A DNA stretch of 64,000 nucleotides, from assembly GCA_946611605.1 (NCBI GenBank), contig CAMODU010000001.1, forward strand, positions 170 to 64,169, in the 5' to 3' direction. Source of the stretch: an uncultured bacterium (lineage in GTDB: Bacteria; Bacillota_I; Bacilli_A; RF39; UBA660). Shown one piece after another: positions 4,648-32,232 of the stretch (positions are counted from its first letter, which is position 1; the number at the start of each line of letters is the position of its first letter). The notes under the pieces are model-generated. The model made no database searches. It saw only the letters and a program-made list of their open reading frames with translations, and was not told the origin of the DNA. The position numbers and the translations under genes are program-made.

Positions 4648-4680
4648 ATTATCCCTCCTTACATATATAATTTTACTATA

Positions 4681-4751
4681 TTTTTTTAACATATTCAAAT
4701 AATACGTTAAATTTTTGCTGTTTTTTTAACATATTTAAATAATGTGTTAAA
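4681..4751. promoter_or_regulatory. two tandem 31-bp direct repeats (TTTTTTTAACATATTYAAATAATRYGTTAAA, period 40 bp), each an imperfect palindrome TTAACAT-N12-AYGTTAA, overlapping the likely fic promoter
   Basis: Repeat copies at 4681-4711 and 4721-4751, 34 bp upstream of the fic ATG. On the fic sense strand TTGAAT-N17-TAAAAT overlaps copy 1. Confidence 0.4.
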
Positions 4752-16500: not shown

Positions 16501-19500
16501 TTACCTTGTACTGTTGCACTGTTACCATTACCACCTGCATAAGCAGAACCACCTATTGTTACATCAGTAACATTAACATGTGTATTACCATATACAACAC
16601 CATAGTTACCTCCACCATAGATGTTACCAGTTATAGTACCTCCATTAATATCAACATGTGTATCTTCATTAACTGAAGCATAATTAGCTCCACCATAGAT
16701 ATCAGTAATGGTACCTTTAGTTAAAGTAATATTTGTATTACCTACATCAGCATTATTACCTCCACCATATACTTTATAGATTCTGCCATCAGTATTTATT
16801 TCTATTTGAGTACTTGGTACAGTACCAGTATTATTAGAACCACCATAAATATTATTGATATTACCACCATTAATATATACATGTGATTGATCTAATCCTG
16901 CTGAGTTTCCTCCACCAAAGATAGTACCTATTTCACCATTATTAATATTTAATGTAGTATTACCACTGTTGGCTTGATTACCTCCACCATAAATTGTATT
17001 AGTTCTACCACCATTATAATTAATAGTTGAAGTAATAGTGTTACCACCAGCATTATTACCACCAAAGATATTATCAATAGTACCTGTTGTTACATTTATA
17101 GTTGATGTATTAACAGTTCCTGATGAATTAGATCCACCAAAGATATTTCCATATTCACCAGTTACTATATCTAAATTAACAGTAGTAACACTTGCTGAAT
17201 TACCTCCACCATATACATTATTAATTTTACCTGTATGTGTTTTAATTGATACATTAGATGTAGCAGTATTAACTTCATTACCACCACCATAGATATCTCC
17301 TATAGAAGCAGTACCTTCAACAGTAATATTAGATGTATTACATGTACCACCTTTATTATTTCCACCAAAGATAGAACCAATAGTACCAGCATTAATTAAT
17401 AATGTTGTTGATGTAACATTACCTGAGTTATTAGAACCACCATAGATATTTGTTACATTAGAACCATTAGCATATACATGTGTATTAGTAACTCCTGATG
17501 AATTACCTCCACCAAATACATTTGTTATAGTTCCACCATTTAAATAAATATTATTATCTTTTGAATGTGATCCAGCTAAATCGTTACCACCATATACATT
17601 AGTTACATTACCACCATTAATATCAACTTCAATATTACCTAATACATATGGAGTATATTGATTACTACCTTCACCACCACCAAATACTGAACCAGTTACA
17701 ATACCATTATGAACAATTACTTTAGTATTACCACCAGCAGTAGATTGATTAGTTGTAGTACCATTAACAGTACCATATCCAGAACCACCATATACATTAC
17801 CTTTAATAGTTGGTACATTTAATATTTCTTCTTGTCCAACTACTACATTTGTATCCTTAGCAATAAATGTGTTTTGACCTTTACCACCACCATAGACATT
17901 TGTATTGATAGTTCCATCTTTAATATTTAAGTTTGTAGAACCATATATAGTACCAGATACATTAGATCCACCAAATATATTACCTAATACAGTTCCACCT
18001 GTTTGATTGATAGTAACTGTAGCACTCTTATTATTAGTACCAGCACCATTTTGGTTACCACCACCATAGACATCTTGTCTAATAGTACCACCTAAGATAT
18101 TAATAATTGTTTCAGTAGTATTAGAAGAACTAGATACACCAGTTGCACCATAGTTACCTCCACCATATACTGAACCTTTAATATCAGCATTACCATCTAT
18201 TATTAAATATGAGTTATCATTTGATCCAATACCAGAGTATCCACTCTTACCATTACCATTACCAAATACTGAACCAGATGCTATACCCCACATCTTAGTA
18301 TTATTACTTACTAATGTATCATCACCTATAGTTGCATTACCACCGATATAAATATATGATGAACCATTTACTGTACCATCTCCATCATTGGCATCACTAC
18401 CAGAACCATTAGATCCACCTAGTACACCATAATTAACTTTACCACCAGTAACAGAAATAATACGGTTACCATAAGTAGGAGATCTACCTGCACCACCAAT
18501 GATAACATCAACATTACCACCAGTCATATAAATATATGTATCATTATAAGATGCTCTAGATGAGTCTGTTAATGGACCACCAATCATATTGTTGACCCAT
18601 CCACCTTCCATCTTAATCTTTCTTGCAGCATAATGAGTACCACCAGTTAATCCACCAACATAGATACCTGTATACATATCGGCTTGAGATGTACCAAACT
18701 TACCACTCTTAACAGTTAAGTCTGTAGCACACTCTTCAGTTGATCTAACAGTACCAGAGAATGATGATGCAGCTTCATAATAAACTGATAAGTTATTATT
18801 ATCCGGATCTAATATTTTATCTATATCAGAACCAAATGTTGTTTTGTTAGCTACATATATAGATGCACTTGTATTATATGGAAGTGTTAAAGCAGTTGAA
18901 CTGAAATGACCTGATTCAATAATCATATTATATTTAGTTGAACTACTAGATGATCCTGTACTAGAAGATCCACCCCATATATAATCAAATGTTGCATTGT
19001 TTGTATTATATTGTTTAATACCTCTACCAAGTTTTAAATTATGCCAGTTAGCATTTAAGGTTGCATAGTATGTTGTACTACCGAACCATCCACCAGATGA
19101 AGCACTAGTTTGAGGATCGACAGTATTAAATTGTTTACTGTTATAAATAGTTAAATGTTCAATAGTAGTATCATTGTATAAAGTTATATTATTACTTGTA
19201 ACAGACCAATCATATGTTGTTTGTCTTCCATTATGTAATCCTGTTAAAGTAAATGGTTTATTATTACCACTATCCCAATAAGATGTAATATCACCAGTTA
19301 AATAAGCTATATTAGTATCTCTTGTAACTAAATAATAATATTCTCTACCAAAATCTACAACTGGTCTATTACCATTTTCATCATATGATTGTAATAATTC
19401 ATAGTAAGTACATTTAGCTTGATTACATGTACCTGATACTTGATTACCACTTAAATCATAATAACCTGCATAAGACGTTCCACGGTCGAAGTCTCTTTCC

Positions 19501-21290
19501 ATATATAAACCAGCAGTAACAAAATCATCATTTACTACTCTAGTAGTTTCACAATCTAAATGATATTGAGATGTATCTAATTGATACATATTATTATTAC
19601 TGTAATAATAATATGTTTCCCCAGGAACAAATTGTTCATCATCTTCTATTTCTTCATAGTAAGGGCATCCATTACGAGAATTACAATATCTAGAAGTTGT
19701 ATAAGTATATCTACCATTACTTTGTCGATAATATCCAGTATAGTATGAATATCTAGGAGCAACTTGATAAGTATAATATCCTTGCATTGAAGGTCCAGTA
19801 CAATCAGTTCTAGTTGTTTCTACTCTCTTTAATCCAGGACTATCAAATTGATCAAATGCATAATCCCAATTATTTCCAGATAAGCCATATTCATTTGCAT
19901 CAATCCAACTAGCATGGAAGTTTACTGCAACGGGATCATATTCACCATTTTCATTAGGTGCTACATTGAATTCAGCAAATCTTTCATATCTAATTCTATC
20001 AATTGATATAGTAACACCAGTTACATCACTTATCCAGTTATTAAATCCTTTACCATTAGGTCTATTAGTAAATGGATTATCTACAAGTAATAATTTAACC
20101 TTACCATTTTCTACAGGTACATAATGATAATAAACTATCTTATTATAATTTTCAGTAGATGAAACAGTACCAGTTAATGTAGTTCCATTATTTTGTTCTA
20201 TACCTGAATAAGATACCATAACTTTTATTAAGTTATGTGAATTATACTTATTCTTATTTTCCATAGTTGGTAATTTACTAATATCTGATGAAGCATAGTT
20301 ATAACCAGTATAATAATTTAAATCATTAACTAAATCATTAACATATAATGTTGTACCATCAGAACCAGTAGAATGTTCACTATAATCACCAGATATAATA
20401 GTTGGTTCATATGGATTTTCCTCATCTTGTAATGAGAACTCACCATTGTTAATGAATATCTTATATTGTCCATTACCCATTCTATCTAATATAGTTGGAT
20501 CATCTAAGACTAATGTATTACCTTCTACTTTATACTTATTAACTTGTAAGTCTGCTGGTTTTTGAACGAAGTCATCCCATTCAGCATATCTAGTAATAAT
20601 ATTTTCATATATATCAGTTCCTGTAGCATAAGCTACATTATAAGTATTATTAGCAGTACAATTATCTTTAAAGTTATTCATTAATACAATATTCTTAAAT
20701 GTTGAATTAACAGATGAATAAGTAATACCACCAAATAAATTGTTTTCATCTGATTTATATATGTTTTGTTTAATAATAACTGTATCAACAACTGTATTAC
20801 CAATTGTTCTAGATAAGAAACCACCTTGATAATCATTTAAATAATAATCTATATCATCATATTCAACATTCTTAATAGTTGCATTAGCTAAGTTATAAAA
20901 TAATCCATTAGTAACTGATGCATTATACAATGCATGACCTTGTCCATCAAATACACCTTGGAATGTAGTCCAGTTACCAATACTGATATCATGACCACCA
21001 AAGTTTAAATCAGCAGTAACAACATAATACTTATTAACATATATCCATGAATCATATCCTTCAAGTAATTCTTTCATGTACATGTATTCACCAGGAGTGG
21101 ATATTTCATAAGGAGATTCTTCAGTACCAGTTCCTGATTTAAAAGATGTAGCAACTACTCCATCCCATGCAGAAGAAGTAGTCTTTCTAGAATATGAGAT
21201 ACTTAAAATCCATAGTGATCCTACGGCTAAAATTAACAGCAATAACACTAGTATTTTCTTAGATTTAATCCCGTTCACTAAATCTTTCAT
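13521..21290 (-). CDS. giant (2589 aa) secreted/surface protein with central Gly-rich parallel beta-helix-type repeats (Pmp/autotransporter-passenger-like), putative adhesin or fibre protein
   Basis: N-terminal K-rich/hydrophobic signal ending ...LWILSISYSRKT. About 25-30 tandem ~21-aa repeats of the form xIYGG(G/S)NxxGxVxxTxInI. Asn/Thr/Tyr-rich flanking domains. Confidence 0.7.
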   Translation of the reverse strand: MKDLVNGIKSKKILVLLLLILAVGSLWILSISYSRKTTSSAWDGVVATSFKSGTGTEESPYEISTPGEYMYMKELLEGYDSWIYVNKYYVVTADLNFGGHDISIGNWTTFQGVFDGQGHALYNASVTNGLFYNLANATIKNVEYDDIDYYLNDYQGGFLSRTIGNTVVDTVIIKQNIYKSDENNLFGGITYSSVNSTFKNIVLMNNFKDNCTANNTYNVAYATGTDIYENIITRYAEWDDFVQKPADLQVNKYKVEGNTLVLDDPTILDRMGNGQYKIFINNGEFSLQDEENPYEPTIISGDYSEHSTGSDGTTLYVNDLVNDLNYYTGYNYASSDISKLPTMENKNKYNSHNLIKVMVSYSGIEQNNGTTLTGTVSSTENYNKIVYYHYVPVENGKVKLLLVDNPFTNRPNGKGFNNWISDVTGVTISIDRIRYERFAEFNVAPNENGEYDPVAVNFHASWIDANEYGLSGNNWDYAFDQFDSPGLKRVETTRTDCTGPSMQGYYTYQVAPRYSYYTGYYRQSNGRYTYTTSRYCNSRNGCPYYEEIEDDEQFVPGETYYYYSNNNMYQLDTSQYHLDCETTRVVNDDFVTAGLYMERDFDRGTSYAGYYDLSGNQVSGTCNQAKCTYYELLQSYDENGNRPVVDFGREYYYLVTRDTNIAYLTGDITSYWDSGNNKPFTLTGLHNGRQTTYDWSVTSNNITLYNDTTIEHLTIYNSKQFNTVDPQTSASSGGWFGSTTYYATLNANWHNLKLGRGIKQYNTNNATFDYIWGGSSSTGSSSSSTKYNMIIESGHFSSTALTLPYNTSASIYVANKTTFGSDIDKILDPDNNNLSVYYEAASSFSGTVRSTEECATDLTVKSGKFGTSQADMYTGIYVGGLTGGTHYAARKIKMEGGWVNNMIGGPLTDSSRASYNDTYIYMTGGNVDVIIGGAGRSPTYGNRIISVTGGKVNYGVLGGSNGSGSDANDGDGTVNGSSYIYIGGNATIGDDTLVSNNTKMWGIASGSVFGNGNGKSGYSGIGSNDNSYLIIDGNADIKGSVYGGGNYGATGVSSSSNTTETIINILGGTIRQDVYGGGNQNGAGTNNKSATVTINQTGGTVLGNIFGGSNVSGTIYGSTNLNIKDGTINTNVYGGGKGQNTFIAKDTNVVVGQEEILNVPTIKGNVYGGSGYGTVNGTTTNQSTAGGNTKVIVHNGIVTGSVFGGGEGSNQYTPYVLGNIEVDINGGNVTNVYGGNDLAGSHSKDNNIYLNGGTITNVFGGGNSSGVTNTHVYANGSNVTNIYGGSNNSGNVTSTTLLINAGTIGSIFGGNNKGGTCNTSNITVEGTASIGDIYGGGNEVNTATSNVSIKTHTGKINNVYGGGNSASVTTVNLDIVTGEYGNIFGGSNSSGTVNTSTINVTTGTIDNIFGGNNAGGNTITSTINYNGGRTNTIYGGGNQANSGNTTLNINNGEIGTIFGGGNSAGLDQSHVYINGGNINNIYGGSNNTGTVPSTQIEINTDGRIYKVYGGGNNADVGNTNITLTKGTITDIYGGANYASVNEDTHVDINGGTITGNIYGGGNYGVVYGNTHVNVTDVTIGGSAYAGGNGNSATVQGNTHIVVDGNTIVGTPESITPASGCVFGGGNKAFTGTELGNSTSTVDIVGGTIYGNVYGGANTSVINGNALVNIGANNLSSMDGLTKSPIYIKGHIFGGGEANAAGSEIYDWYFISVTEGTEINIDATDYDSYKIDGSFYGGGNASTSAGDSCLNIKNYGSRDNPQKNISIQRVTYATIENSSMILTGAMDRANDYDKELFAISRVPLLTLKDNSDLYLEAGANLLEVYRSVDKDDNLATVQIEDGNVTRNVDNRIYMYEGKNLNIARDQQVTDYGDVQGMSFFGMYNYDGNGHVHTGIYSHTVNNGDHVSYAETFDRGSYVLGKHQTNHDIRVNGFYSNYMDEDTLINEVKYIEPTPESSNFYMWFIGENVIEYNVNLVASKYSTLGSTELSFLEFSAPNTSFQILNSNANDVADGISLVDKDQIPRIGEGTENNVFGLSMEASNSGWLTKGKTSFYTGEPSMSGQDYYVGENSSNVPTMLFYLYHSKNISEEKELGTVRISIMAITKESALESKVRRLVINVNMSTALFQTDEYEGAMTPGDKYELFASTTTNISAKSKFSAYYSIYSENNNLYKEGYHRVLSSNIVFPTNTKITMIDYTNDEPYYYYYIVTPDEEARATNELRIHHEASYPLSNFTRMGTDDTSQKYNDEYMNSIYYDGRDSSEEFIFIVDLSDANITTDKMNSRLLIELRDDQDETLVTVLGIEHNQLTYNIYANKDSIINGVATSKNNTLYIGYNDNMDVTIDYHNSSDSGTAVIDTQYFDSKLGLQIHLETEDGHIVSGTDLTGCYFQMDGVKYYSDIDGITHMSIAEKVGNVKKWITFNTENSNLPSGDYKFVFEAFGSPDGIYFSDTSYTFEMNKTIINSKYGINPTISDNSVIFNGTNNDKSLNFNIKYNSLLSNPNTRIQMYRRTYDDYYDTDYVEVDLQDFIDQELTPSENNHEYILSGRPVASIDYSFKMKETMTTGTYRLVFKLYDNSTFIGDVTRYIIIK
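16050..18600 (-). repeat. intragenic tandem repeat array (DNA period ~63-66 bp) encoding the Gly-rich beta-helix rungs
   Basis: Recurrent ACCACCACCATA / ATATCC...ACC words on the plus strand. Boundaries are approximate. Confidence 0.5.
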
Positions 21291-21371
21291 ACCTATGCTC
21301 CCATTTTCTATTATACCTATAATTATTTTACCATAAAACGATATAAAAAGTCTTTAATAATCGCATAAAAA

Positions 21372-21393
21372 AAGAAGATATTTCTATCTTCTT
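21372..21393. terminator. rho-independent terminator separating the fibre locus from the giant gene
   Basis: AAGAAGAT-atttct-ATCTTCTT preceded by A7 (T7 on minus) and followed by TTTTAT on plus. Confidence 0.55.
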
Positions 21394-21404
21394 TTTATAA
21401 TCTA

Positions 21405-22406
21405 TTAGTCAGTTATAGCAAATTGTAAATTATAAGAAATACTAGCTCCTGTTGCATAGTTTTCACAATCGATATCTTGTCCTTCAACCCACATGTAAAT
21501 TCTCATCTTAGTTACACCTGCAGAAAGACTAAATACTTGTTTATAATCTTCAACTTTATTACCATCAGCATCTAATTCAGTACCAAATGCGGCTAATGTA
21601 GCTAAATCTGGAGTAACTAATTCTGAATTATCAGTATTAGTACCATTAACTGTTTCAATTAATGATTGAGGAGTAGTAAATGCTCCATTAATACCATAAT
21701 AAGGAGTCTTATCATTAGCAACTAATGATACACCATATGTTGATGATAATTGATTCTTAACTGTATCAGCATGTGCATCAGCATTTGGTTCCCAAATGAA
21801 TGCTTTAGCAGCAGCAGAATTGTTTAATTTAATTAACTCACCTGGAGCTTTAGATGCATCTCCAGTACCAATTTCAACAAATGCTACACGAGCAGAGTTT
21901 TGTAATCCCTTATCAGTATCTTTATTAACTACTGATGAGTTTTGAGTTAAATAAATTTGTTCATCTTTATCAACTTTTAAGAATACATCAAATGCTACAA
22001 ACTTACCATTTGCAGATGTAGTTGATGCTTCATTTTCTTTATTAGTGAAAATAGTATAATTACCTTCATCATCGTTTCCGATTACTCCACTATACATATC
22101 CATTAAATGGTTAGTAATAGCACCATTTGTAGATACAGCAGTAACTGTTGCAGGTAATATGTTATTAGCACCAGCATAACCAGATGTAATATCATCATTA
22201 GTTATAACAGTCTTCCATGTACTTGCATCAGTAGATATTTGTAATCCGTTACTAGCTTCTACTTTAACATCAATTTGATTGATTGTTACTACACGGTTAG
22301 CAGTAAACCATGCATATGTTGATGTACCTAACATTACTACAGTAATAAGTAATAATAGGATCAACAAACTTAATTTCTTTTTGTTTTTCTTTTGTTTCTT
22401 TGCCAT
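21405..22406 (-). CDS. TasA/CalY (camelysin, peptidase M73)-like secreted protein with SipW-cognate-type signal
   Basis: N-terminus MAKKQKKNKKK + hydrophobic + GTSTYAWFTAN, compared to TasA GGGTWAAFND. C-terminal ...RIYMWVEGQD...ISYNLQFAITD resembles the CalY/TasA terminal strands. GAAGGAGA RBS. Confidence 0.55.
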   Translation of the reverse strand: MAKKQKKNKKKLSLLILLLLITVVMLGTSTYAWFTANRVVTINQIDVKVEASNGLQISTDASTWKTVITNDDITSGYAGANNILPATVTAVSTNGAITNHLMDMYSGVIGNDDEGNYTIFTNKENEASTTSANGKFVAFDVFLKVDKDEQIYLTQNSSVVNKDTDKGLQNSARVAFVEIGTGDASKAPGELIKLNNSAAAKAFIWEPNADAHADTVKNQLSSTYGVSLVANDKTPYYGINGAFTTPQSLIETVNGTNTDNSELVTPDLATLAAFGTELDADGNKVEDYKQVFSLSAGVTKMRIYMWVEGQDIDCENYATGASISYNLQFAITD

Positions 22407-22408
22407 AA

Positions 22409-23131
22409 TTATTCTCCTTCTTGTTCAATATGTTCTTCTGTAATTTTCATACGCATTTTTAATTCTCCACCAATAAGTGGATCAGTACAGTCAGGATCAT
22501 CACCCTCAAGCCATACTACAATAGTCATCTTATCAAAATCACCTGGTCTGAAATTTTCTCTTTTCTCTAAGATAATAGTTCCGTTATCTCCATCGATTTC
22601 TTTGAATCTAGTAGTTCCAGGTTCTGCTTCATCTGCTATTGAATTCTTTTTAGCATATGTTACATACTCGCCATTAAGATATATTCTGAATCTAACAGCT
22701 TCATCAACATTCTTAATAACGTCATCGATTATTACTTCGTACCAATAATTTAATACGTCTTTCCCCTGATTCTCAATGAAGAAAGTATAAGCAATATAGT
22801 TTTCTCCATTATGAGAGCCTTCATAGTTTCCATCTATATCATCAGGTAACCATTTATAGGAAATATTATCCATAAATTTAATTGGTATTGCTTCGAGTTT
22901 CCTTTTAGGTTGAGAATTATTTAAGCTATCAAATATAGCAAGCCCACTATTAATTGTTTCTTGAGAATCCAATGTAATAGTAAAACTACCTTGACTATAA
23001 GCAATGCTTAATATTCCGTAAAGACATATCAAAAACAGCAATAACACTAATGATGTAATCTTTACTACTCTAGAAGTAACTTTCTTCCTTTTGACTTTAT
23101 CAGCGGTTACTATTACATTTTTACCAAACAT
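22409..23131 (-). CDS. TasA-like paralog (start trimmed to MFGKN...)
   Basis: GGTGGTGGA RBS before ATG 23131. KRKK + hydrophobic + GILSIAYSQGSF. C-terminal TIVVWLEGDDPD motif. Confidence 0.45.
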   Translation of the reverse strand: MFGKNVIVTADKVKRKKVTSRVVKITSLVLLLFLICLYGILSIAYSQGSFTITLDSQETINSGLAIFDSLNNSQPKRKLEAIPIKFMDNISYKWLPDDIDGNYEGSHNGENYIAYTFFIENQGKDVLNYWYEVIIDDVIKNVDEAVRFRIYLNGEYVTYAKKNSIADEAEPGTTRFKEIDGDNGTIILEKRENFRPGDFDKMTIVVWLEGDDPDCTDPLIGGELKMRMKITEEHIEQEGE

Positions 23132-23349
23132 AATCCACCACCACAAAATATTTCTATATGACACCCTTCTATCATACAATCTCATTATAATTCAAACACA
23201 GATTTTTATCAATATCAATTTATAATAATTATTCCTTTTTACGATACTAGTCAGTATATATTTACGTCAAATACAATATACTTTATATTATATTTACATT
23301 ATATGGTTTTTAGCATGATAAAATAATAGTATAGGAAGGGATGTATATT

Positions 23350-23946
23350 ATGAGTAATATACTAAATAATAAGCGTATTAATCTATTTATAGCACTTATA
23401 TCATTGCTATTACTCATTACAATGGTACAAAATACATATGCTAAATATGTATCTAGTGCTAATGCAGATACTAACTTCACAATAGCAACATGGGCATTCG
23501 TAATCAATAGACAAGATGTATTAAGTAATTCCAACTTTAGTAATACTATTACACCAGTATTTATCAACAATGATAATATTAAACAAGGTGTTATAGCTCC
23601 TACTTCAGAAGGATATTTTGATTTAGCAATTGATGCTTCTGGAACTGATGTATCATTTACTGAAACTATAACAGTTGCTAATTCAGTAAATAATAAAATA
23701 AGTGATTTAAAGATAACTGGATATCAAATAAATGGTGGAGATTTAGTTGAATTCACTGAAACAACAAATACCATTACTACAGATCATTTATTAAGCGATC
23801 ATACAAGAACAACTACATATCGTATATTTATTAAATGGTATGATGGCGAAGGCGAAAACATGGATAACCAAGCCGATACTCAAGCATCACTTAATGATAC
23901 TGCTAAAGTAAACGTTAATGTCGGGTTCATACAAAAAGCTAATTAG
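23350..23946 (+). CDS. TasA-like paralog (only plus-strand member)
   Basis: GGAAGGG RBS. MSNILNNKR + hydrophobic + NTYAKYVSS. C-terminal YRIFIKWYDGEGEN. Confidence 0.45.
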   Translation: MSNILNNKRINLFIALISLLLLITMVQNTYAKYVSSANADTNFTIATWAFVINRQDVLSNSNFSNTITPVFINNDNIKQGVIAPTSEGYFDLAIDASGTDVSFTETITVANSVNNKISDLKITGYQINGGDLVEFTETTNTITTDHLLSDHTRTTTYRIFIKWYDGEGENMDNQADTQASLNDTAKVNVNVGFIQKAN

Positions 23947-23955
23947 TATTACTAA

Positions 23956-24588
23956 TTAGCTATTATTTTGTGTAATTATTACTTTTATTCTTAAAGTTAT
24001 GCTGGATAAATCAGGATGACTTTTTTTATAGTTACTAGCTATTATTCCCCATCTAGTATCTTCCTCATCATCACCAGTTTCAAATGGCCATACAACATTA
24101 AAATTATATGTTGCAATACCATCATGTGAAGATATATTAGTACTAGATATTCCAACTGTAATAGTAAAAGGATAATTATTAGCTAGTTTATTTAATAACT
24201 CAGCTGATGTCATATCTCCTTCTTGCACTTCTTCTTTTCTTGATTCTCTACCCTCAACTGTTATATACGTATCATCAAATATTCTAGCTTCCAACACTTC
24301 ATATGATAATGTAGCATCTACATCACCTTGGTTTCTAGCTTGTAAGCTATATACATAATCTTCCATACCTGGGTATATACTATCAACATCTAGATTAACA
24401 TAATCTTCTACAGCTTGTTCACCTGCTTGGAATAATACATTCCACGCTCTAACATGAACATCAACCTTATTATCTACTTTAGTAGTATATATAAACCATG
24501 CAAAGGTATTACCTACAACTAAGAATAAGATGAATATTAACCTAAGAATTATAAATTTTTTATTTGTCTTCTTTCTTTGGTTCTTCAT
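23956..24588 (-). CDS. TasA-like paralog
   Basis: MKNQRKKTNKK + hydrophobic + GNTFAWFIY. C-terminal FNVVWPFETGDDEED...ITLRIKVIITQ. Confidence 0.5.
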   Translation of the reverse strand: MKNQRKKTNKKFIILRLIFILFLVVGNTFAWFIYTTKVDNKVDVHVRAWNVLFQAGEQAVEDYVNLDVDSIYPGMEDYVYSLQARNQGDVDATLSYEVLEARIFDDTYITVEGRESRKEEVQEGDMTSAELLNKLANNYPFTITVGISSTNISSHDGIATYNFNVVWPFETGDDEEDTRWGIIASNYKKSHPDLSSITLRIKVIITQNNS

Positions 24589-25123
24589 CTTCTTCAGAAT
24601 CCTTTACAAATAATCCTCTTAATAAATCAAACGCAATAGATAAACCTACTATTACAAATATTCCATAGTAGACTGTATTATTTTGCATTAATCTACCTAA
24701 GAAACTTAATATAATTGAATGATATAATACTTTACCATATATCATATCACCAGATATTTTAGGATCTTCTACATCGTTTGCTATACCTTGAGTAGTAAAT
24801 GTATATTTACCATTATTCTCATCTATTTTTATAATTCTATGTGTTATAACTATTCCTTTATTATATCCATTAGGATCACTTTTATAAGTAACATCATCAC
24901 CTACTTTATAAGTAGATACATCTTGTTTCTTAACAACTATTAAATCACCTATTTTATATTCAGGTTCCATTGATCCTGATACTACTTGGAATATATAAAA
25001 ATTACCTATAGTTAAATTGTTTTTAGTAGTTCTTTGTAATATAACAATAGCTAACATAATAATTAATAATATAGTTATAATTATTCTTATTATATTAAAA
25101 GTTTTCATCACTACTTTTTTCAT
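24560..25123 (-). CDS. sipW: signal peptidase I, SipW/ER-type (S26B)
   Basis: TM anchor then VVSGSMEPEYKIGDLIVV (Ser nucleophile), ITHRII (His), ANDVEDP, and a C-terminal TM. Confidence 0.75.
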   Translation of the reverse strand: MKKVVMKTFNIIRIIITILLIIMLAIVILQRTTKNNLTIGNFYIFQVVSGSMEPEYKIGDLIVVKKQDVSTYKVGDDVTYKSDPNGYNKGIVITHRIIKIDENNGKYTFTTQGIANDVEDPKISGDMIYGKVLYHSIILSFLGRLMQNNTVYYGIFVIVGLSIAFDLLRGLFVKDSEEDEEPKKEDK

Positions 25124-25127
25124 AATA

Positions 25128-26246
25128 TCATCCCAAATCTATATTTTCTATTCTCTCTAGATAAGCTTTAATACTAGTTGAGAACACATTTTCAATTTCA
25201 GATAAACTAGCTTCTCTTTTAAATCTAGTAATAGCTATCTTATCTCCTATTTTCTTCTTTAATTGTTCCATATCTAAATCAGTATTTAATTCTACTATTC
25301 TTTGAATTAAGTTATCAGTTATTTCTTCAACTGCTCTATCTTTATCTTCTTTAGATTTAACATTACTTAATGTATTCATAGCAACATAATCCATTAAGAA
25401 AGTATTATTAATATACTCTTTTAAGATACCATTATCTTCATAATCTTTTTTACTCTTAACTATTTTAGTATCATCATCTGTATGAGCTTGTAGATAATCC
25501 CATAGTTTCATTGCATATTGGAAGTTAGTATTCTTTAAGATAACATTAGTCTTTTTAATTGGAGGTATTACTTTAGCTACATGAGCTTTATGTAATAACT
25601 TATATGTTTCCTCAGATTGAAGCATTTTAATGTCATCTTCAAGTCTTTTAACTCTTTCCTCAATAGATAATTCACCTTGTTCTTCTTCTTTATCTATTAA
25701 AGATGAAGTATAGTAAAATTCCATTGAAATTTGTTCTTTACCTACTTTACTCTTAGCATGATATTCAGCCTTCTTTATATCCTTATAACTAGAACCATTT
25801 ACTAATGTTTTCTTTTTTAATTCTACAAAGTTAGCCATATTATTTACTAAAGTATATATTAATCTGTTTTCATATGTATCATATGATTCATCTTTATTAA
25901 TATTTAAGATTTTAGATGGTTTAACATCACCATTATCTTCAATCTTTTGAATCATATTTGTATGTTTAGCTAAATGTCTAATACTTTCAACAGTAACTCT
26001 TCTAGCTAATTCAACTTTAACTATTTCTTCTTCATTTATAATGAATCTATTTGGGTTTCTAAAAATATTATCTATATATTTAACAGTATCTTCCATTAGG
26101 TCAAGCCATTCAAAACTTGTTTCTACTTTCTTTATATCAGTAGAAATGTTTAAACTTGATCTAGTATTATTTAAGAAACTAGTTTTATTAGTTTTATGGT
26201 CATCATAATATAAATCTATTATTTTTAAATCACCCATAGATATCAT
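25128..26246 (-). CDS. hypothetical cytoplasmic protein (372 aa), candidate partner of the McrB-like NTPase
   Basis: Coiled-coil-rich, no TM or signal. No nuclease motif recognisable by eye. 2-nt spacing to the upstream ATPase gene. Confidence 0.4.
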   Translation of the reverse strand: MISMGDLKIIDLYYDDHKTNKTSFLNNTRSSLNISTDIKKVETSFEWLDLMEDTVKYIDNIFRNPNRFIINEEEIVKVELARRVTVESIRHLAKHTNMIQKIEDNGDVKPSKILNINKDESYDTYENRLIYTLVNNMANFVELKKKTLVNGSSYKDIKKAEYHAKSKVGKEQISMEFYYTSSLIDKEEEQGELSIEERVKRLEDDIKMLQSEETYKLLHKAHVAKVIPPIKKTNVILKNTNFQYAMKLWDYLQAHTDDDTKIVKSKKDYEDNGILKEYINNTFLMDYVAMNTLSNVKSKEDKDRAVEEITDNLIQRIVELNTDLDMEQLKKKIGDKIAITRFKREASLSEIENVFSTSIKAYLERIENIDLG

Positions 26247-26247
26247 C

Positions 26248-27771
26248 CTAACTCATTTTCTTAAGTCTTAATAAATATTCAGTACATTCTTTCATTTTTC
26301 CTTTACCAAATTTATTATCTAGGAATTTAACGAAATCATCTATTTCATCACGAATGTATGCAATATTTAATTGTTCAAACTTTCTTAAAATCTTTCTTGC
26401 AATGAAGTAATCTATTCCATCTACTTCATCTCCACCACATGCTACATACACAGGAACGAACTTTTTCATGTGTGCAACAATACGGTTACCAAATGCAATA
26501 CGGAAATGTTGTATTACATAGTTATCCATTTCTTCTATCTTGTCTAAATTCTCTTGATGTATAGGATAATTAGCTATAGCATCTTGAATCTTTTCATCAA
26601 AATAAGAATAGTTAATATCCATCGCTTCTGTTTCAACAGGCTCAAATACTTCACCTTTATCATTTATATCAATTGGCATAGCACGGTCATATACCTTATC
26701 AGTAACCATGAATGTTGAGTCATCGTTATTGATTGTGCCGATGTACCATACATTTGGAGGTATTTTTAATTTACCTTCAATTAATTTCTTTGGATCGTTC
26801 TTCCATGCAGATGGAACTATTTCAACAATCCATTCATCTTTATTAGGCATTTCAAGTATAGATAGCATTTCTGCAAAATAGTATTCTACACGTGAAATGT
26901 TCATTTCATCTAAGATAACTGTATATATATCATCTGTATATCCAGCTACATATAATTCTTTTAATACTTCTGTTTCATTAAACTTCTTTGTAAATTCGTT
27001 GAAGTATCCAAATAACTCAGTTCTATCACGCCAAGATGGTTGAACAGACGCAATACATGAATCATGTTTTAAGAATTTTCCCCAAGCATATGCTAAGGAA
27101 GTTTTACCTGTACCAGAGATACCTTGTAAGATTACAAGTTTAGTAGATGCTAACGATGCAATAAATAATCTAATCATATCTTCTTTATAATATAGTTTTA
27201 ATTTACTTGCAGCAAAGTTTCTAAATGCATTAACTAAATCAGGTAATTCAAATGTATTGTTATATACTTGTACTTTATAATTTTCAAATTTTTGATCAAC
27301 TTCATATAATTTAGGGAATCTTATATCAGATGCAGGATTAACAGCATCCCCTTCTTCTTGAGTAGTATCTCCTTCAGCTTCATCAGGTTTTATACCTAGA
27401 TTAGATACTTTCATTGCTAATATATCTTCTTTTTCTTTCATTAGTTTTGCAACTTCATGATTTAAATCAGATACTTCTTCTAGTAATGATTCTTGATCTA
27501 CTAATGATTTTCTAAATCTAACATATTTTCTAATTAGTAGATAAATACCAAATATAATTAAAGCAACTACTGTAACAACTATAATAATTGCTATTGCAAA
27601 GAATAACCATTCAGGTCCATTAAAATCTTGCTTATAATTATCCGCTATTCTTGAGTACGCTGAAAAATCAAATAGAGTTCTAAATCCATTTGCTATACCC
27701 TCAAATATATATTTGAAAGAGTTAAAAAATTGAGTTAAGAATTCATATAGAAATCTAAAAAATGTTTCCAT
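26248..27771 (-). CDS. membrane-anchored McrB-like (AAA_5) NTPase
   Basis: One N-terminal TM helix (WLFFAIAIIIVVTVVALIIFGIYLLI) and a coiled coil. Walker A QGISGTGKTS. Walker B VILDEMNISRVEYYFAEMLSILE parallels the McrB IIDEINRANLSKVFGEVMMLME block (recalled from memory). GGAAGGAAG RBS. Confidence 0.55.
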   Translation of the reverse strand: METFFRFLYEFLTQFFNSFKYIFEGIANGFRTLFDFSAYSRIADNYKQDFNGPEWLFFAIAIIIVVTVVALIIFGIYLLIRKYVRFRKSLVDQESLLEEVSDLNHEVAKLMKEKEDILAMKVSNLGIKPDEAEGDTTQEEGDAVNPASDIRFPKLYEVDQKFENYKVQVYNNTFELPDLVNAFRNFAASKLKLYYKEDMIRLFIASLASTKLVILQGISGTGKTSLAYAWGKFLKHDSCIASVQPSWRDRTELFGYFNEFTKKFNETEVLKELYVAGYTDDIYTVILDEMNISRVEYYFAEMLSILEMPNKDEWIVEIVPSAWKNDPKKLIEGKLKIPPNVWYIGTINNDDSTFMVTDKVYDRAMPIDINDKGEVFEPVETEAMDINYSYFDEKIQDAIANYPIHQENLDKIEEMDNYVIQHFRIAFGNRIVAHMKKFVPVYVACGGDEVDGIDYFIARKILRKFEQLNIAYIRDEIDDFVKFLDNKFGKGKMKECTEYLLRLKKMS

Positions 27772-27784
27772 ATAATCTTCCTTC

Positions 27785-28762
27785 CTACATCTTTATTATT
27801 TTGCTCTCTATCTTATCCTCATTATCCTTAATCATATCAAAAAATTCACTATCTTCATAGATAAATATATATGAAAATATTGGTAAACTATTAATTTTTC
27901 CATCAAATGTATCATCTATTATAATTGCTACATTATAACCATATTTAATTATAAGATCAAATATTTCCTTATTTTTAATATATGTAGAATATGTGATTCT
28001 TAGATGAATAAACTTTCTTGCTAATGTATTATCAATAGTACTTAATAGTCTTTTAAACTTCTTATCTTTAGCTACTAAAGTAGCAGGAATATCTATAATA
28101 TATTTTCTAGTAAAATCTAGACTAATAGCATTCTTTAATAGTTCATATGAACATTTAATTAACATGATAAATAATTTATCTTCATTTATAACTGGTGTAT
28201 TATATGCTTTATCAATAGCATATTCAGAATATAAATTAGATATTTTTATATTACTATCTAATCCTAATAAATATGTTTTTCTATATACACTTTTCTCAGT
28301 TAATATAAAATCATTTGATACTATTGAATCAAAGAATTTCTCTTTAGTTCTAGAATAATTATTTAACCATTTCTTTATTTCTTTAATAGATTCATTAGAT
28401 AGATTTAACTTTAATGTTTCATCTTTAGTTAATAAATCTAAAACTGAATCACCATCTTCTATTGGATATACATCATCTACATATGCTATATAGATAAATA
28501 ATGCTACTGCTGTTTTTAATAATTCATCTTCTTCAGATGTTTTATTTTCATTATAAACATCTAATAATTCTTTATTAAGACGAGTAACAAAATCTCTTGT
28601 TGATGTATAATTAGTTTCATTAAAATATCTAACATCTATATATTTATTAACAAATAACTTACATACTTTCTTAGGATAATTATTACCTATAACTAATCTT
28701 AAGAATTCAAGTAATTCTCTCTTAACAAACTTAATATATTTACTTATTATATTGTATTCCAT
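27785..28762 (-). CDS. hypothetical protein with possible degenerate EAL-like C-terminal domain
   Basis: Start trimmed to ATG 28762 (AGGAGTGG RBS overlapping the upstream stop). The C-terminal ~110 aa follow the EAL layout (see findings) but with the catalytic ExxE, DDFGTG and K-I-D positions substituted. Confidence 0.3.
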   Translation of the reverse strand: MEYNIISKYIKFVKRELLEFLRLVIGNNYPKKVCKLFVNKYIDVRYFNETNYTSTRDFVTRLNKELLDVYNENKTSEEDELLKTAVALFIYIAYVDDVYPIEDGDSVLDLLTKDETLKLNLSNESIKEIKKWLNNYSRTKEKFFDSIVSNDFILTEKSVYRKTYLLGLDSNIKISNLYSEYAIDKAYNTPVINEDKLFIMLIKCSYELLKNAISLDFTRKYIIDIPATLVAKDKKFKRLLSTIDNTLARKFIHLRITYSTYIKNKEIFDLIIKYGYNVAIIIDDTFDGKINSLPIFSYIFIYEDSEFFDMIKDNEDKIESKIIKM

Positions 28763-28772
28763 AAGACCACTC

Positions 28773-29693
28773 CTAATTTGGATCTTCAACATTTAGTGAA
28801 ATAATACTAGTATTATTATCAAATGGATAAGTATAATTCTTTGTTGTATCTTTCTTATAGAATCTTAAAGCAGTTGAACTTAAAGGATCTATAGGAATTC
28901 TTACACTGTTGATGTATTGTACTCCATTATAATCTGTTGTTGTGTATTGTGCATTCTTTAATACATTACTAGTATTATCAAAGAACACATCATCATTATC
29001 AAATGCTAATGTTACATATTTACTTACACATTTTGATTGATTATCTTTAGATAATTTTCTATAGGTTTTATTATCTATAACATCACCTACATTATAATCA
29101 TCAAATGCTTCAGTTATTGTACATGAGTTATTAGCATTAGTAATTTTAAATACTAAATATGTTCTATTCTTTTCATCTTCTATTTCATATGTTAAACCTT
29201 TTTTACCAACTATATATTCAAACGTAGCACTTAAAGTTTTAACATATGGAGATGTTGATTTTGCATATATTTTAATAACCATTGATTCTTGTTCATTGTA
29301 TTCTCTTTGAGGATTAACATTTATTGTAACAGTAGAAGAATGGTTAATACTTGATGCATAAACTGTTCCTTCTCCATTTGATGTTGAACATATAACATCA
29401 GATGGACATTCAAACCATACTACATATGGAATATCATAATCAGTAAAAGTAAGATTATTCTTCATAGATAATAAATCAAATGATATATCAAATGCACCTA
29501 CACCAGACCAGTTATTAATCTGATATAAAGGTTCTTTATCAGTTAATCTATTACTTGAAAAATAGAAGTTCTTACTATTCAAATAGTAATCATGATATTC
29601 TTGTACTGCATATCTTGCAAATGTATATACACCAAATCCTAATACAATAACAAGTATAATAATAATTGCAATTCTTATATTCTTCTTTTTCAT
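28773..29693 (-). CDS. secreted protein with SipW-cognate-like signal (306 aa)
   Basis: MKKKNIR + hydrophobic + GVYTFARYAV. Asn/Tyr-rich. The C-terminal motif is less clear than in its paralogs. Confidence 0.4.
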   Translation of the reverse strand: MKKKNIRIAIIIILVIVLGFGVYTFARYAVQEYHDYYLNSKNFYFSSNRLTDKEPLYQINNWSGVGAFDISFDLLSMKNNLTFTDYDIPYVVWFECPSDVICSTSNGEGTVYASSINHSSTVTINVNPQREYNEQESMVIKIYAKSTSPYVKTLSATFEYIVGKKGLTYEIEDEKNRTYLVFKITNANNSCTITEAFDDYNVGDVIDNKTYRKLSKDNQSKCVSKYVTLAFDNDDVFFDNTSNVLKNAQYTTTDYNGVQYINSVRIPIDPLSSTALRFYKKDTTKNYTYPFDNNTSIISLNVEDPN

Positions 29694-29695
29694 TA

Positions 29696-30283
29696 TTACA
29701 CAACCTGTTCTGCATTTATCTTGATGTCTACTAAATCTATATTACCTGAATAATGTTCAGGAGAATTTTCATATTGTTTAGGAAATTTAACCCATAAATA
29801 ATAAACATCTGTTTTCTTATTACTAAAATACATAGGATTAATATCATCTATTATTAGATGTTTATAGAACACTCCATTATCATCTGTAGTATATGTAGTA
29901 TTACTTACTATATCATTAGATAAATCAGGATCTTTAAACACTTTAAACTCTAATGGCATATTTGTAGTTGTAATTAATTCTATTTTATATCTTAAATCTA
30001 CATTAGCTTTCTTATTATCTTTAAAGTTAGATACATCAAATCTATACATATATGGTTCATCAGATGGTACCATACTTTCTAATTTAATACTTTGAGTTTG
30101 ATTAGTTACATCAACTATAAAGAATGCAATAGCAGGTTTAAGATTAACTTTTGTATTTGTTTCATATTTTGAATAAGTAATATTAGATGTACTAATAACT
30201 ACTCCTACTAAAACTAAAAGAACGAATAATATACTATATCGTTTGAAATATTGATTATTCATTAACTCCTTTAGTTTATTCAT
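29696..30283 (-). CDS. TasA/CalY-like paralog
   Basis: Hydrophobic + NITYSKYETN. C-terminal VYYLWVKFPKQYEN...IDLVDIKINAEQ closely parallels the CalY end ...YLWVQFEFVDDG...LELQWTFNANQ. Confidence 0.5.
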   Translation of the reverse strand: MNKLKELMNNQYFKRYSILFVLLVLVGVVISTSNITYSKYETNTKVNLKPAIAFFIVDVTNQTQSIKLESMVPSDEPYMYRFDVSNFKDNKKANVDLRYKIELITTTNMPLEFKVFKDPDLSNDIVSNTTYTTDDNGVFYKHLIIDDINPMYFSNKKTDVYYLWVKFPKQYENSPEHYSGNIDLVDIKINAEQVV

Positions 30284-30291
30284 AGTTACAC

Positions 30292-31125
30292 CTACTTAAC
30301 TCTATCTTTAATTCTCTTTTGTATTTCAGATAAATCTAAACGCATAGTATAATTTATAAACTCTTTTTGTTTATCTTCTAAATCATCTACCGTTTTCTTT
30401 TCTTCATCTATTTCCTTAATATCTTTCTTTAATTCGTTAACTTCTTTTGTTGTCATCTTATATTCATCATTTTTAGCTAACATTTTATTTATTTCAGTAA
30501 GATCTATTGTCTTAGTGAACTCTAATAATTCTTCTTTATTTATTTGAGGAGTTTCATCAGGTAATTCTACCTTAGTAATAGTTATTTCTTCTTCCTCTTC
30601 CTTCTTTTCTTCTTTCTTTTTTTCTTCAGGTTTCTTTCTTGATAATGCTATATCAAATAATACTAAAGTAATAAATAACACTAGTATTATTTGAGGTTCA
30701 GAGAATACTTTTTTCCATATACCTAACTTAGGATATATTTTAACTACCTCACCTATTATCATACTTTTAGTAATAGTTGTATCTATAGTATTATTAGCAT
30801 CACCCTTACAAGTATATTTATCTCCATCAATAAACATTACCCTGTGAGTAATAATTGAACCTTCAGATATGTAAGAAATAATATCATCTTTTTGTACATT
30901 GTTATTATCTAGTTTAACTAGAATAATATCACTTGTACTTATAGTAGGTTCCATTGAACCTGATTCAACTTGTAATACTGTGTATCCAAAGAAATTAGGA
31001 TACATATTATTAGTAAAAGTCATTACTGCTTTACCATATATTATTAGGATTAATATGGCTAATAATATATAAGTAAAAACATTAACTATATTTTTAACTA
31101 TCTTTTTAACATCAATAGTTATCAT
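30292..31125 (-). CDS. sipW: signal peptidase I, SipW-type, with ~110-aa highly charged C-terminal extension
   Basis: VESGSMEPTIS, ITHRVM, KGDANN, second TM, then EKKKEEKKEEEEE... K/E-rich tail. Confidence 0.7.
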   Translation of the reverse strand: MITIDVKKIVKNIVNVFTYILLAILILIIYGKAVMTFTNNMYPNFFGYTVLQVESGSMEPTISTSDIILVKLDNNNVQKDDIISYISEGSIITHRVMFIDGDKYTCKGDANNTIDTTITKSMIIGEVVKIYPKLGIWKKVFSEPQIILVLFITLVLFDIALSRKKPEEKKKEEKKEEEEEITITKVELPDETPQINKEELLEFTKTIDLTEINKMLAKNDEYKMTTKEVNELKKDIKEIDEEKKTVDDLEDKQKEFINYTMRLDLSEIQKRIKDRVK

Positions 31126-31151: not shown

Positions 31152-31706
31152 TTATTCTCCAGTATATTGTTTAAAATTACTATTTATAACAATATCTAAT
31201 GAACCACCTATTAGTTCATTATCATTTTCATTATATTCTTCTATATCATTCCAAATTATTTGTATTTTAATTTTTCTAGTTTTATCTTGATCAGATAATC
31301 TAATTACTCCTGTTAATACTTCATCACTTACTTCTTGGTTTGTTGCTTCATCTACAATTCGTAATTCTATATTTGGATGATTATCAAACTTTGTTGTATC
31401 AAATGATAAATTATATTCAACAGAAGTATCACAGTTAGATACATCTATATCAACTTCAAACTCACCAGTAGATCCAGGAGCTAAATATCCTTCTTCTGTA
31501 TGAGTACTACCTGTTACAACAAAATCATTAAATGATATACTTTGTTGCAATGTTATATTAGTATCATTTAAAGATATACTCCACTTACCTACAGTCATAA
31601 CTGTTTCAGCTCTTGCATTAGTTTCAAATAAACCATATGTCTTAACTATATTTAATGAAACTATAGCAATAAGCAATATACTAATTAGAATTAGCTTCTT
31701 CTTCAT
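31152..31706 (-). CDS. TasA-like paralog
   Basis: MKKKLILISILLIAIVSLNIVKTYGLFETN. C-terminal KIQIIWNDIEEYNEND...LDIVINSN. Confidence 0.5.
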   Translation of the reverse strand: MKKKLILISILLIAIVSLNIVKTYGLFETNARAETVMTVGKWSISLNDTNITLQQSISFNDFVVTGSTHTEEGYLAPGSTGEFEVDIDVSNCDTSVEYNLSFDTTKFDNHPNIELRIVDEATNQEVSDEVLTGVIRLSDQDKTRKIKIQIIWNDIEEYNENDNELIGGSLDIVINSNFKQYTGE

Positions 31707-32232
31707 TTACTTTCTTATTTTCCTTAACTAATTCAATAATCATCATTATTTCATAAACAATAGCAAATAATGTTGGTAATATAATTAAGAATAAGAATCC
31801 CCATTTAGATGTTAGTATTCCAAGTACAGTACCTAGTCCATGATAAACTCTAGCTGTATCTTGTTTACCTATTACATATTCACCTGATACTTTATTATCA
31901 TTAACAGTGAATGTAGATTCAAATTGAGTAACTGTTTCTTTATCTGTTACTTCACCAGTATAAATAAATACTGAACTAGTTTTAGCTGAATTATAATAGA
32001 AGATTTTATCTCCTTTATTTATCTTATTGTCACTGTTACGTTTTACAATAACTAAATCCCCTTCTTTATAATCTGGTTCTAATTGATCATTATCAATAAT
32101 AATCAAAGTATTATTACCTAATACAGTAGTTTTATAATCGTTATAAGATAATAAACATACTGATACAAATACAGCAATAATAAACCAACATGTAATTAAA
32201 AGATCAATAAATAATTTCCCTATCTTTTGCAT
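31681..32232 (-). CDS. SipW paralog lacking catalytic Ser/His (pseudo-signal-peptidase)
   Basis: Same TM...x-x-LEPDYKEGDLVIVK...C-terminal TM architecture as the two SipW proteins. However NDQLEP replaces SGSMEP, IYTGEV replaces ITHRxx, and the GDAN box is absent. Confidence 0.5.
   Translation of the reverse strand: MQKIGKLFIDLLITCWFIIAVFVSVCLLSYNDYKTTVLGNNTLIIIDNDQLEPDYKEGDLVIVKRNSDNKINKGDKIFYYNSAKTSSVFIYTGEVTDKETVTQFESTFTVNDNKVSGEYVIGKQDTARVYHGLGTVLGILTSKWGFLFLIILPTLFAIVYEIMMIIELVKENKKVNEEEANSN

Follow-up and report, generated by a model that had tools for sequence, protein, structure and literature searches.

A membrane-tethered McrB-like GTPase and a McrC homologue in a SipW operon of an uncultured bacterium probably help to build surface fibres

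Introduction

Why would a relative of the GTPase of a restriction enzyme sit in the middle of an operon of signal peptidases and secreted proteins? This question is raised by a stretch of 64,000 nucleotides (nt) from an uncultured bacterium (GTDB lineage Bacillota_I, Bacilli_A, RF39, UBA660; GenBank assembly GCA_946611605.1, contig CAMODU010000001.1, positions 170 to 64,169), the whole of which we call the window and in whose own numbering all positions are given. Three adjacent genes on its minus strand, between 25128 and 28762, encode a protein of 325 amino acids (aa) that we name X325, a 507-aa McrB-like GTPase (B) and a 372-aa McrC homologue (C). A first-pass annotation had reported these three tightly coupled open reading frames (ORFs) within a locus of SipW-type signal peptidases, where they are indeed present with gaps of 1-13 nt, and it had left two readings side by side: an assembly or export motor for fibres, or a defence island nested in the locus. 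The former is favoured here over the latter because SipW genes accompany the module in essentially every related locus and because plasmids and viral contigs yielded no full-length copy. We estimate a probability of roughly 60% that this is an McrBC-derived module which, without DNA binding or nuclease, has become fixed in a SipW operon and has a GTP-driven role in fibre biogenesis. As such it probably helps to build surface fibres rather than to fight phages, and a role in defence is unlikely.

The novelty that had been proposed for such an assembly or export motor does not hold, since the architecture has already been named CoCoPALM by Bell et al. (eLife 2024, PMC11090510), in a single paragraph that deferred its analysis to a later paper. 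In a full-text search of the literature the term occurred only in that paper and its preprint. In that description of CoCoPALM an NxD McrB GTPase is fused to an FtsB-like transmembrane (TM) helix and coiled coil, coiled coils being usual on the McrB as well as the McrC homologues, and the N-terminal TM helix and coiled coil of the GTPase were found by HHpred to resemble FtsB (PMC11090510).

Results

The GTPase

The GTPase gene (26248..27771, minus strand) encodes a protein with the Walker A motif GISGTGKTS and the Walker B block VILDEMNISRVEYYFAEMLSILE. Against PDB sequences phmmer returned E. coli McrB (6HZ4) as the sole match (E = 4e-4, residues 193-365), a 35-member family profile aligned to E. 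coli McrB by hhalign with a probability of 96.3% (E = 1.5e-9), and NCBIfam also calls the protein McrB (NF008457). The McrB-like identity proposed in the first-pass annotation is borne out by these searches. Its assignment to AAA_5 is not, as Pfam AAA_5 was unmatched on the window GTPase even at E<=1, with a marginal match in relatives only. Profiles of MoxR, AAA_3 and VWA gave no match on the window proteins, the top curated matches being McrB (NF008457, PDB 6HZ4), and assignments of the GTPase to MoxR/VWA or STAND were rejected, the only P-loop matches seen being sub-threshold. With McrB as the best match and SipW genes as the context, the protein does not belong to a MoxR clade with a VWA partner found in unrelated surroundings.

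The sensor motif reads G-T-I-N348-N-D350-D. Among 35 diverse relatives that bear a TM helix N348 and D350 are invariant while the next D is not, and GT[AI]NxD, often followed by D, occurs in 130 of the 150 representatives among the matches listed, the remainder being mostly fragments. The NxD motif, which stands in place of NxxD and is usually followed by D or E, defines a major branch of the McrB GTPases (PMC11090510).

A single TM helix spans residues 56-80 (Kyte-Doolittle 3.39) and is followed by the basic stretch RKYVRFRK, so that by the positive-inside rule the rest of the protein should be cytoplasmic; all but this one helix and ~55 N-terminal residues are predicted to lie in the cytoplasm. 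Heptads can be read off the sequence at about residues 88-121, with four repeats (L95/L102/L109/I116 and V99/V106). Hence both the membrane tether and the coiled coil that had been noted before are recovered. From the N-terminus onwards the protein consists of an amphipathic segment, the TM helix, the coiled coil, an acidic linker and the NxD AAA+ GTPase domain at ~190-507; Pfam and NCBIfam profile scans detected no DNA-binding family in residues 1-190. We conclude that the 507-aa protein belongs to the NxD branch of the McrB-family GTPases, with a predicted tether to the membrane and its catalytic domain in the cytoplasm.

Close relatives come from uncultured low-GC metagenome-assembled genomes of rumen and gut that carry the labels Bacilli, Tenericutes or Mollicutes. 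Most close family members of ~450-680 aa have a TM segment, and TM-less relatives of 700-870 aa form the nearest out-group. With more than 8000 homologues of the GTPase, 2699 of C and 144 of X325, the three are real genes and not chance ORFs.

The McrC homologue

McrB-family proteins are normally paired with McrC, and the first-pass annotation had contrasted this with the window, where it saw two uncharacterised partners. This contrast disappears, and the label uncharacterised falls, for the 372-aa protein encoded directly downstream of the GTPase (25128..26246, minus strand): it matches Pfam DUF2357 (PF09823, the McrC N-terminal domain) over residues 28-157, with E = 8e-10 and 38.8 bits against a cut-off of 23.3. 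PF09823 is present in all 120 homologues of C among the matches listed. As these homologues measure 368-369 aa, the true start of C is probably Met4, at 26237.

Across 71 orthologues of 29-70% identity, conservation in C is limited to residues 44-133, the DUF2357 core, and to residues 228-249 (PIKKTNVILKNxNF..LW). Residues 250-372 are poorly conserved in these orthologues and contain no invariant D...(D/E)xK, and Pfam returned no nuclease family in C at E<=1; both results agree with the earlier observation that no nuclease is visible in this partner. The AlphaFold2 monomer of C is of low confidence (predicted local distance difference test, pLDDT, 63.6). Its C-terminal half consists of helices at 195-220, 274-320 and 348-367 plus strands, with no single long coiled coil in this low-confidence model, and a Foldseek search of the model against the PDB gave noise only. 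Alignment of the low-diversity C profile to E. coli McrC by hhalign found nothing, and neither did a PDB profile search. Because the model is poor and the fold search uninformative, the argument for nuclease loss is built on Pfam and on conservation, by which the 372-aa protein is a McrC homologue whose nuclease appears to have been lost. The DUF2357 core is invariant and yet poorly modelled in the monomer, as would be expected of a segment that forms an interface.

Gene order and distribution

In a scan for relatives with one genome per species, at least 594 genomes contained a relative of the GTPase; the best 80 loci (53-77% identity) were kept, and gene order was counted over the 82 loci fetched with the GTPase. 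The kept loci come under the labels Bacilli, Tenericutes and Clostridia, and among them are Oscillospiraceae and Ruminococcus sp. CAG:488. In the 82 loci the GTPase/C pair sits among SipW genes and proteins with a SipW-type signal, SipW being counted within the locus in 78. C lies directly downstream of the GTPase in 79 of the 82 loci, the others being truncated contigs, and the core order SipW-GTPase-McrC-SipW is constant. A metagenome scan seeded by multi-TM relatives of ~600 aa added 80 more distant loci (35-45% identity), of which 62 have SipW within the locus. In this distant multi-TM subtype SipW lies directly upstream of the GTPase, and the gene set is different but conserved. The co-occurrence with SipW clusters elsewhere that had been put forward as a check on the first-pass annotation thus holds for most loci of both sets, and no full-length copy turned up among plasmids or viral contigs.

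Within the locus conservation is highest for the GTPase, with a median identity of 65-70%, followed by C (43%), SipW (34-41%) and X325 (29%); most of the secreted proteins have medians of 27-39%, and the 258-aa one reaches 49-51%. No full-length GTPase was found on plasmids, where only matches to the GTPase domain below 40% identity occurred, nor in 2.9 million viral contigs, which yielded five distant partial matches. Taken together, the synteny, the slow evolution of the GTPase and the lack of full-length plasmid or viral copies argue against a mobile defence cassette.

Within the metagenome set, contigs from human gut (L086-L112) carry the ~600-aa multi-TM subtype with a conserved series of downstream proteins of ~415-475, 250, 530, 810, 370, 227 and 700 aa. 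Two other loci (L134 and L137) show a tandem arrangement of a GTPase of 435-445 aa, a McrC-like gene and a second GTPase of 458 aa, with no SipW within the 10-kb flanks. This arrangement may represent a different NxD subtype.

X325 and its fusion to SipW

The X325 gene (27785..28762, minus strand; its longest ORF extends to 28792 and encodes 335 aa) immediately precedes the GTPase gene, and an identical X325 occurs on a contig of metagenome assembly ENA ERZ28612945. For the 507-aa GTPase a look-up by exact sequence returned no record. The predicted structure (pLDDT 90.1, predicted template-modelling score 0.86) combines a helical domain (residues 1-147) with an alpha/beta domain at ~150-325, which in the prediction has an EAL-type (beta/alpha) barrel fold, truncated so that the last strand is missing. 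Of the catalytic and metal-binding positions of EAL domains, namely the EAL Glu, Asn, ExxE, DDFG, KxD and EGVE, only D283, the first D of DDFG, is kept in 52 homologues, by a register taken from strand order and not from residue-level superposition. No sequence profile for EAL, that of Pfam included, matched any of the 52 family members. The possible dead EAL domain suggested before is therefore found again as an EAL-like predicted fold without its catalytic residues, and judged by this model X325 is a degenerate, catalytically dead EAL-like protein. By analogy it may, as FimX and LapD do, act as a receptor of cyclic diguanosine monophosphate (c-di-GMP), or, as YdiV does, purely as an adaptor. 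Unlike FimX, LapD and YdiV/STM1697, X325 gives no sequence-level EAL signal, has a truncated domain without the last strand, EGVE and QG, and carries a novel helical N-terminal domain.

A standalone X325 gene lies directly upstream of the GTPase in 56 loci, with gaps of -13 to +46 nt and as the exception one copy that is split into two ORFs. In 12 loci, whose GTPases are 54-60% identical to that of the window, the place directly upstream of the GTPase is taken by a fusion protein of 646-756 aa that joins a SipW, an acidic linker and a complete X325 (for example L055:7748-9916, L058:8049-10001 and L070:7749-10004, plus nine more loci). These fusion proteins score 60-66 bits with TIGR02228 (cut-off 51.85), and their X325 part is recognized by BLASTP (E = 2e-28) and by a hidden Markov model (E = 1e-38 to 1e-51). 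The second TM helix of SipW leads into a cytoplasmic C-terminus; the fusion would thus make X325 a cytoplasmic appendage of SipW beside the cytoplasmic GTPase. A Clostridia-type clade has no X325 and keeps SipW-GTPase-McrC, which marks X325 as an accessory part and not a part of the core.

The window also contains a GGDEF diguanylate cyclase gene (36110-37186, minus strand; TIGR00254, 128 bits), 7 kb upstream of the X325 gene, which makes synthesis of c-di-GMP by this organism probable. Being a neighbour in only two of the 82 loci, this gene was rejected as a conserved partner of X325.

SipW paralogues and secreted proteins

Three SipW-type genes belong to the operon, two of them above the TIGR02228 cut-off and the first below it. 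This first gene (31681..32232, minus strand; TIGR02228 E = 5e-9, 36 bits, sub-cut-off) encodes a 183-aa SipW-like protein with NDQLEP in place of SGSMEP and without the His box, and 54 of its 55 orthologues likewise have neither the catalytic Ser motif nor the His. An inactive signal-peptidase homologue, SipA/LepA, occurs in streptococcal pilus loci, and by analogy the inactive SipW paralogue may be a pseudo-peptidase that acts as an assembly chaperone. The second SipW (30292..31125, minus strand; 277 aa, 67.6 bits) has SGSMEP and THR and carries a lysine/glutamate-rich, coiled-coil-like C-terminal tail of ~120 aa after its second TM helix. It is the paralogue type that bears the C-terminal X325 fusion in 12 other loci, and the coiled coils of the GTPase or of C might be partners for its tail. 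The third (24560..25123, minus strand; 187 aa, 93.8 bits) likewise has SGSMEP and THR, ends in an acidic C-terminal tail and directly follows C in 72 loci.

The small secreted proteins of the locus have an N-terminal hydrophobic segment followed by [ST]-[YF]-[AG]-x-[FY], which is seen in seven window proteins; A-W-F after the hydrophobic segment is invariant in two secreted families (alignments A5 and A6, A5 being from the second transcription unit). We take this motif to be of the signal-peptide type of B. subtilis TasA. No match of the secreted proteins to the TasA/camelysin family (Peptidase_M73) was obtained with Pfam, NCBIfam or PDB profiles, and TIGR04088 reached 15.3 bits on the 333-aa protein, under its cut-off of 19 bits. 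The description of these neighbours as TasA-like therefore finds no support in sequence searches beyond the SipW-type signal motif.

Layout of the locus

The window is AT-rich (~26% GC), and from 13.5 to 32.2 kb almost all genes are on the minus strand. In the 5'->3' order of the operon, the inactive SipW-like gene is followed by the gene of a 184-aa secreted protein (31152..31706), the tailed 277-aa SipW, a 195-aa secreted protein (29696..30283), a 306-aa secreted protein (28773..29693), X325, B, C, the 187-aa SipW and, as the last gene, a 210-aa secreted protein (23956..24588), all on the minus strand. The intergenic gaps are 13 nt between X325 and the GTPase, 1-10 nt between the GTPase and C, and 4 nt between C and the next SipW. 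The 184-aa protein has an N-terminal hydrophobic segment and a KTYGLFE motif; a Pfam search found no family for it, and an orthologue occupies the same position in 38 loci. SipW-type signal motifs are ITYSKYE in the 195-aa protein, which has syntenic orthologues, YTFARYA in the 306-aa protein, with syntenic orthologues in 58 loci, and NTFAWF in the 210-aa protein, whose A-W-F is invariant (alignment A6) and which is syntenic in 64 loci.

At the convergent junction that ends the operon lies a bidirectional terminator-like hairpin with an 11-bp stem (23937..23961). Apart from it no terminator-like site was found between 21300 and 32300, hence none is internal and the genes appear to form a single operon. 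A promoter scan of the locus returned fewer matches than in shuffled sequence. The convergent gene (23341..23946, plus strand) encodes a 201-aa secreted protein with the motif NTYAKY, and its orientation is kept in 55 loci. Beyond it a second transcription unit (13521..23185, minus strand), syntenic in 40-50 loci, encodes a 258-aa SipW-signal protein (22409-23185), a 333-aa SipW-signal protein (21405-22406) and a giant protein of 2589 aa with an N-terminal signal anchor (13521-21290), all on the minus strand. The longest ORF of the 258-aa protein is probably overextended, as its first codon is overlapped by a promoter-like TTGATA-17-TATAAT (11/12) at 23212-23184 and another Met (MFGKNVIV...) occurs further on, still ahead of the signal anchor. 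Neither Pfam nor NCBIfam has a match for the giant protein, which may serve as a fibre tip or adhesin. A 515-aa protein is encoded 3' of its gene (11847-13394, minus strand), and giant proteins together with proteins of ~500 aa are a recurrent feature of the margins of related loci.

Housekeeping genes flank the locus, and no integrase or mobile-element genes were found in these flanks. Elsewhere in the window a 292-aa coiled-coil protein (35203-36081, plus strand) has a weak, sub-threshold match to the anti-phage protein ZorA (E = 1.7e-5, 23.9 bits against a cut-off of 250), which probably reflects coiled-coil composition alone. A Fic/DOC-family protein with Fic_N and SoFic-like C-terminal domains (3592-4698, minus strand) has no relation to the fibre locus.

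Discussion

Comparison with known systems

In this study we show that the window and ~140 related loci have the architecture of CoCoPALM, with which they share an NxD McrB GTPase, an N-terminal TM helix and coiled coil, an adjacent DUF2357 McrC homologue and genes of the signal-peptidase family. The window system is a typical member of this named, uncharacterised class and is not categorically new. Three features appear to go beyond the published description: the EAL-like X325, the SipW-X325 fusion and the inactive SipW. SipW/TasA-type substrates, EAL, c-di-GMP, an EAL-SipW fusion and an inactive SipW paralogue are absent from the accessible main text of PMC11090510, and one supplementary table gave no match for CoCoPALM, FtsB, peptidase or pilus.

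With E. coli K-12 McrBC (PDB 6HZ4, 6UT6) the window system has in common the AAA+ core (Walker A, Walker B and sensor Asn), the family of the McrC N-terminal domain and the gene order, GTPase then partner. It differs from McrBC in that the GTPase has a TM helix and a coiled coil instead of a DNA-binding domain and NxD instead of NxxD, in that no PD-(D/E)xK was detected in C, and in its genomic context, a chromosomal secretion/fibre operon. The CoCoNuT (CnuB/CnuC) and PDC-M26 systems belong to the same NxD branch of GTPases. CoCoNuT GTPases, however, have long soluble coiled coils and always stand beside HEPN or other nucleases, whereas the GTPase of the window has a TM anchor and none of these was detected. 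The B. subtilis TasA/TapA/SipW operon and archaeal bundling pili share with the window the archaeal-type signal peptidase (SipW, TIGR02228) and substrates whose signal peptide ends in a motif of the [ST]-[YFW]-A-x-F type. In B. subtilis the operon contains no NTPase; the window adds the McrBC-derived module and, in contrast to that operon, has three SipW paralogues (one inactive) and at least seven substrates including the 2589-aa protein.

How the module might act

How could an McrBC-like pair contribute to fibre biogenesis? In McrBC the N-terminal domain of McrC inserts into the McrB hexamer and stimulates GTP hydrolysis (structures 6HZ4 and 6UT6; PMC11090510). By comparison with these structures, the GTPase of the window would form a membrane-tethered hexamer plugged by one C subunit, the invariant DUF2357 core of C entering the hexamer to stimulate GTP hydrolysis. 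The EAL-like X325, possibly together with the charged SipW tails, might dock the GTPase on the cytoplasmic side of SipW, and GTP hydrolysis might drive or gate the processing of signal-anchored subunits and their hand-over into the extracellular fibre. Such a motor would be analogous to the hexameric ATPase that powers type IV pilus assembly from inside the cell. In C. perfringens the matrix protein BsaA, which is processed by SipW, seems to require type IV pilus proteins for crossing the wall (PMC11580942), which suggests that some SipW substrates depend on energised machinery. In its most specific form, a novel machine for pili or fibres in single-membrane gut bacteria, with an exapted, membrane-tethered McrB hexamer and a nuclease-less McrC, docked on the SipW tail through a degenerate EAL adaptor that may sense c-di-GMP, and powering or gating fibre assembly, the model is tentative, and we would put its chances at somewhat less than even.

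Several points weigh against a GTP-driven role in fibre biogenesis. TasA-type fibres assemble outside the cell by donor-strand exchange with no known NTPase (PMC9674648), so that a requirement for energy is not established. As the GTPase domain and C are cytoplasmic, any action on extracellular subunits would have to go via the TM helix of the GTPase or via SipW, a connection that we infer. The TasA link of the secreted proteins is missing in Pfam, NCBIfam and PDB-profile searches, nuclease loss in C is deduced from sequence conservation alone, and neither the FtsB homology of CoCoPALM nor the coiled coil of C was reproduced here. All CoCoPALM systems are known from sequences alone. In addition, the absence from plasmids and phages is weak evidence, as the collections are poor in elements from uncultured gut Bacilli.

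Alternative explanations

Could the module instead be a regulatory or quality-control device, that is a GTP switch or unfoldase which controls SipW, clears cleaved signal anchors or, through X325, couples c-di-GMP or nucleotide status to fibre production, doing no mechanical work on the fibre? X325 resembles degenerate c-di-GMP receptors and adaptors (LapD, FimX, YdiV) and in a sister clade is joined to SipW, a diguanylate cyclase is encoded 7 kb away in the window, and the GTPase and C are cytoplasmic save for one TM helix and ~55 N-terminal residues, all of which would suit such a device. However, the Clostridia-type clade that lacks X325 keeps SipW-GTPase-McrC, so that X325 can hardly be part of the core logic, and the GGDEF gene is rarely found beside the locus elsewhere. 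That a GTPase of the AAA+ hexamer type, with its stimulatory partner, is so highly conserved would moreover suggest mechanical or enzymatic work and not a simple switch. We therefore regard a purely regulatory function as unlikely, while taking it seriously.

A defence system that became fixed in the fibre locus is a more doubtful proposition. It would be a membrane-bound, McrBC-derived sensor of phage DNA or of pilus-dependent entry, leading to abortive infection or to shutdown of the receptor fibre. The module does descend from a type IV restriction system, the sister CoCoNuT systems are predicted to act in defence (PMC11090510), and one source labels a homologue 'predicted component of viral defense system'. 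The PADLOC candidate PDC-M26A matches the GTPase with E = 6.5e-37, but the match covers the GTPase domain only, so the window system is not an instance of PDC-M26, and PADLOC models gave no match to C or X325. A scan of 16 locus proteins found neither a nuclease nor a HEPN family, and no other effector was detected in the trio or its neighbours. Whereas defence islands are typically patchy and of fast turnover, position and order of the module are fixed across two bacterial classes with the GTPase as the slowest-evolving gene, its flanks are free of mobile-element genes, and full-length copies are absent from the plasmids and viral contigs searched. On this balance defence seems improbable.

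Still further down we would place a cell-division or membrane-remodelling factor unrelated to fibres, for which the SipW neighbourhood would be operon hitch-hiking. In its favour is the resemblance to FtsB that was published, on the basis of HHpred, for the N-terminal TM helix and coiled coil. In our hands hhalign of the GTPase family profile (alignment A1) against E. coli FtsB gave a probability of 0.6%, in a weak test with a single-sequence template, and Pfam FtsB/DivIC was unmatched on the GTPase N-terminus at E<=1. The coiled coil of the GTPase is predicted to be cytoplasmic, and that of FtsB lies on the opposite side of the membrane. Together with a synteny with SipW and its substrates that hitch-hiking can hardly explain, this makes such a factor highly improbable.

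Implications

If the model holds in its most specific form, the module would be the first NTP-driven assembly route for SipW-processed fibres and the first non-defence function of the McrBC family. McrBC is the textbook GTP-driven restriction enzyme, and its relative in the window would show how defence machinery can be recycled into the biogenesis of the cell surface. The system is spread over at least 594 species genomes, many of them from uncultured small-genome bacteria of the human gut and rumen, where it stands beside multi-kilobase adhesin-like genes. As such it may matter for colonisation and biofilm formation by these bacteria.

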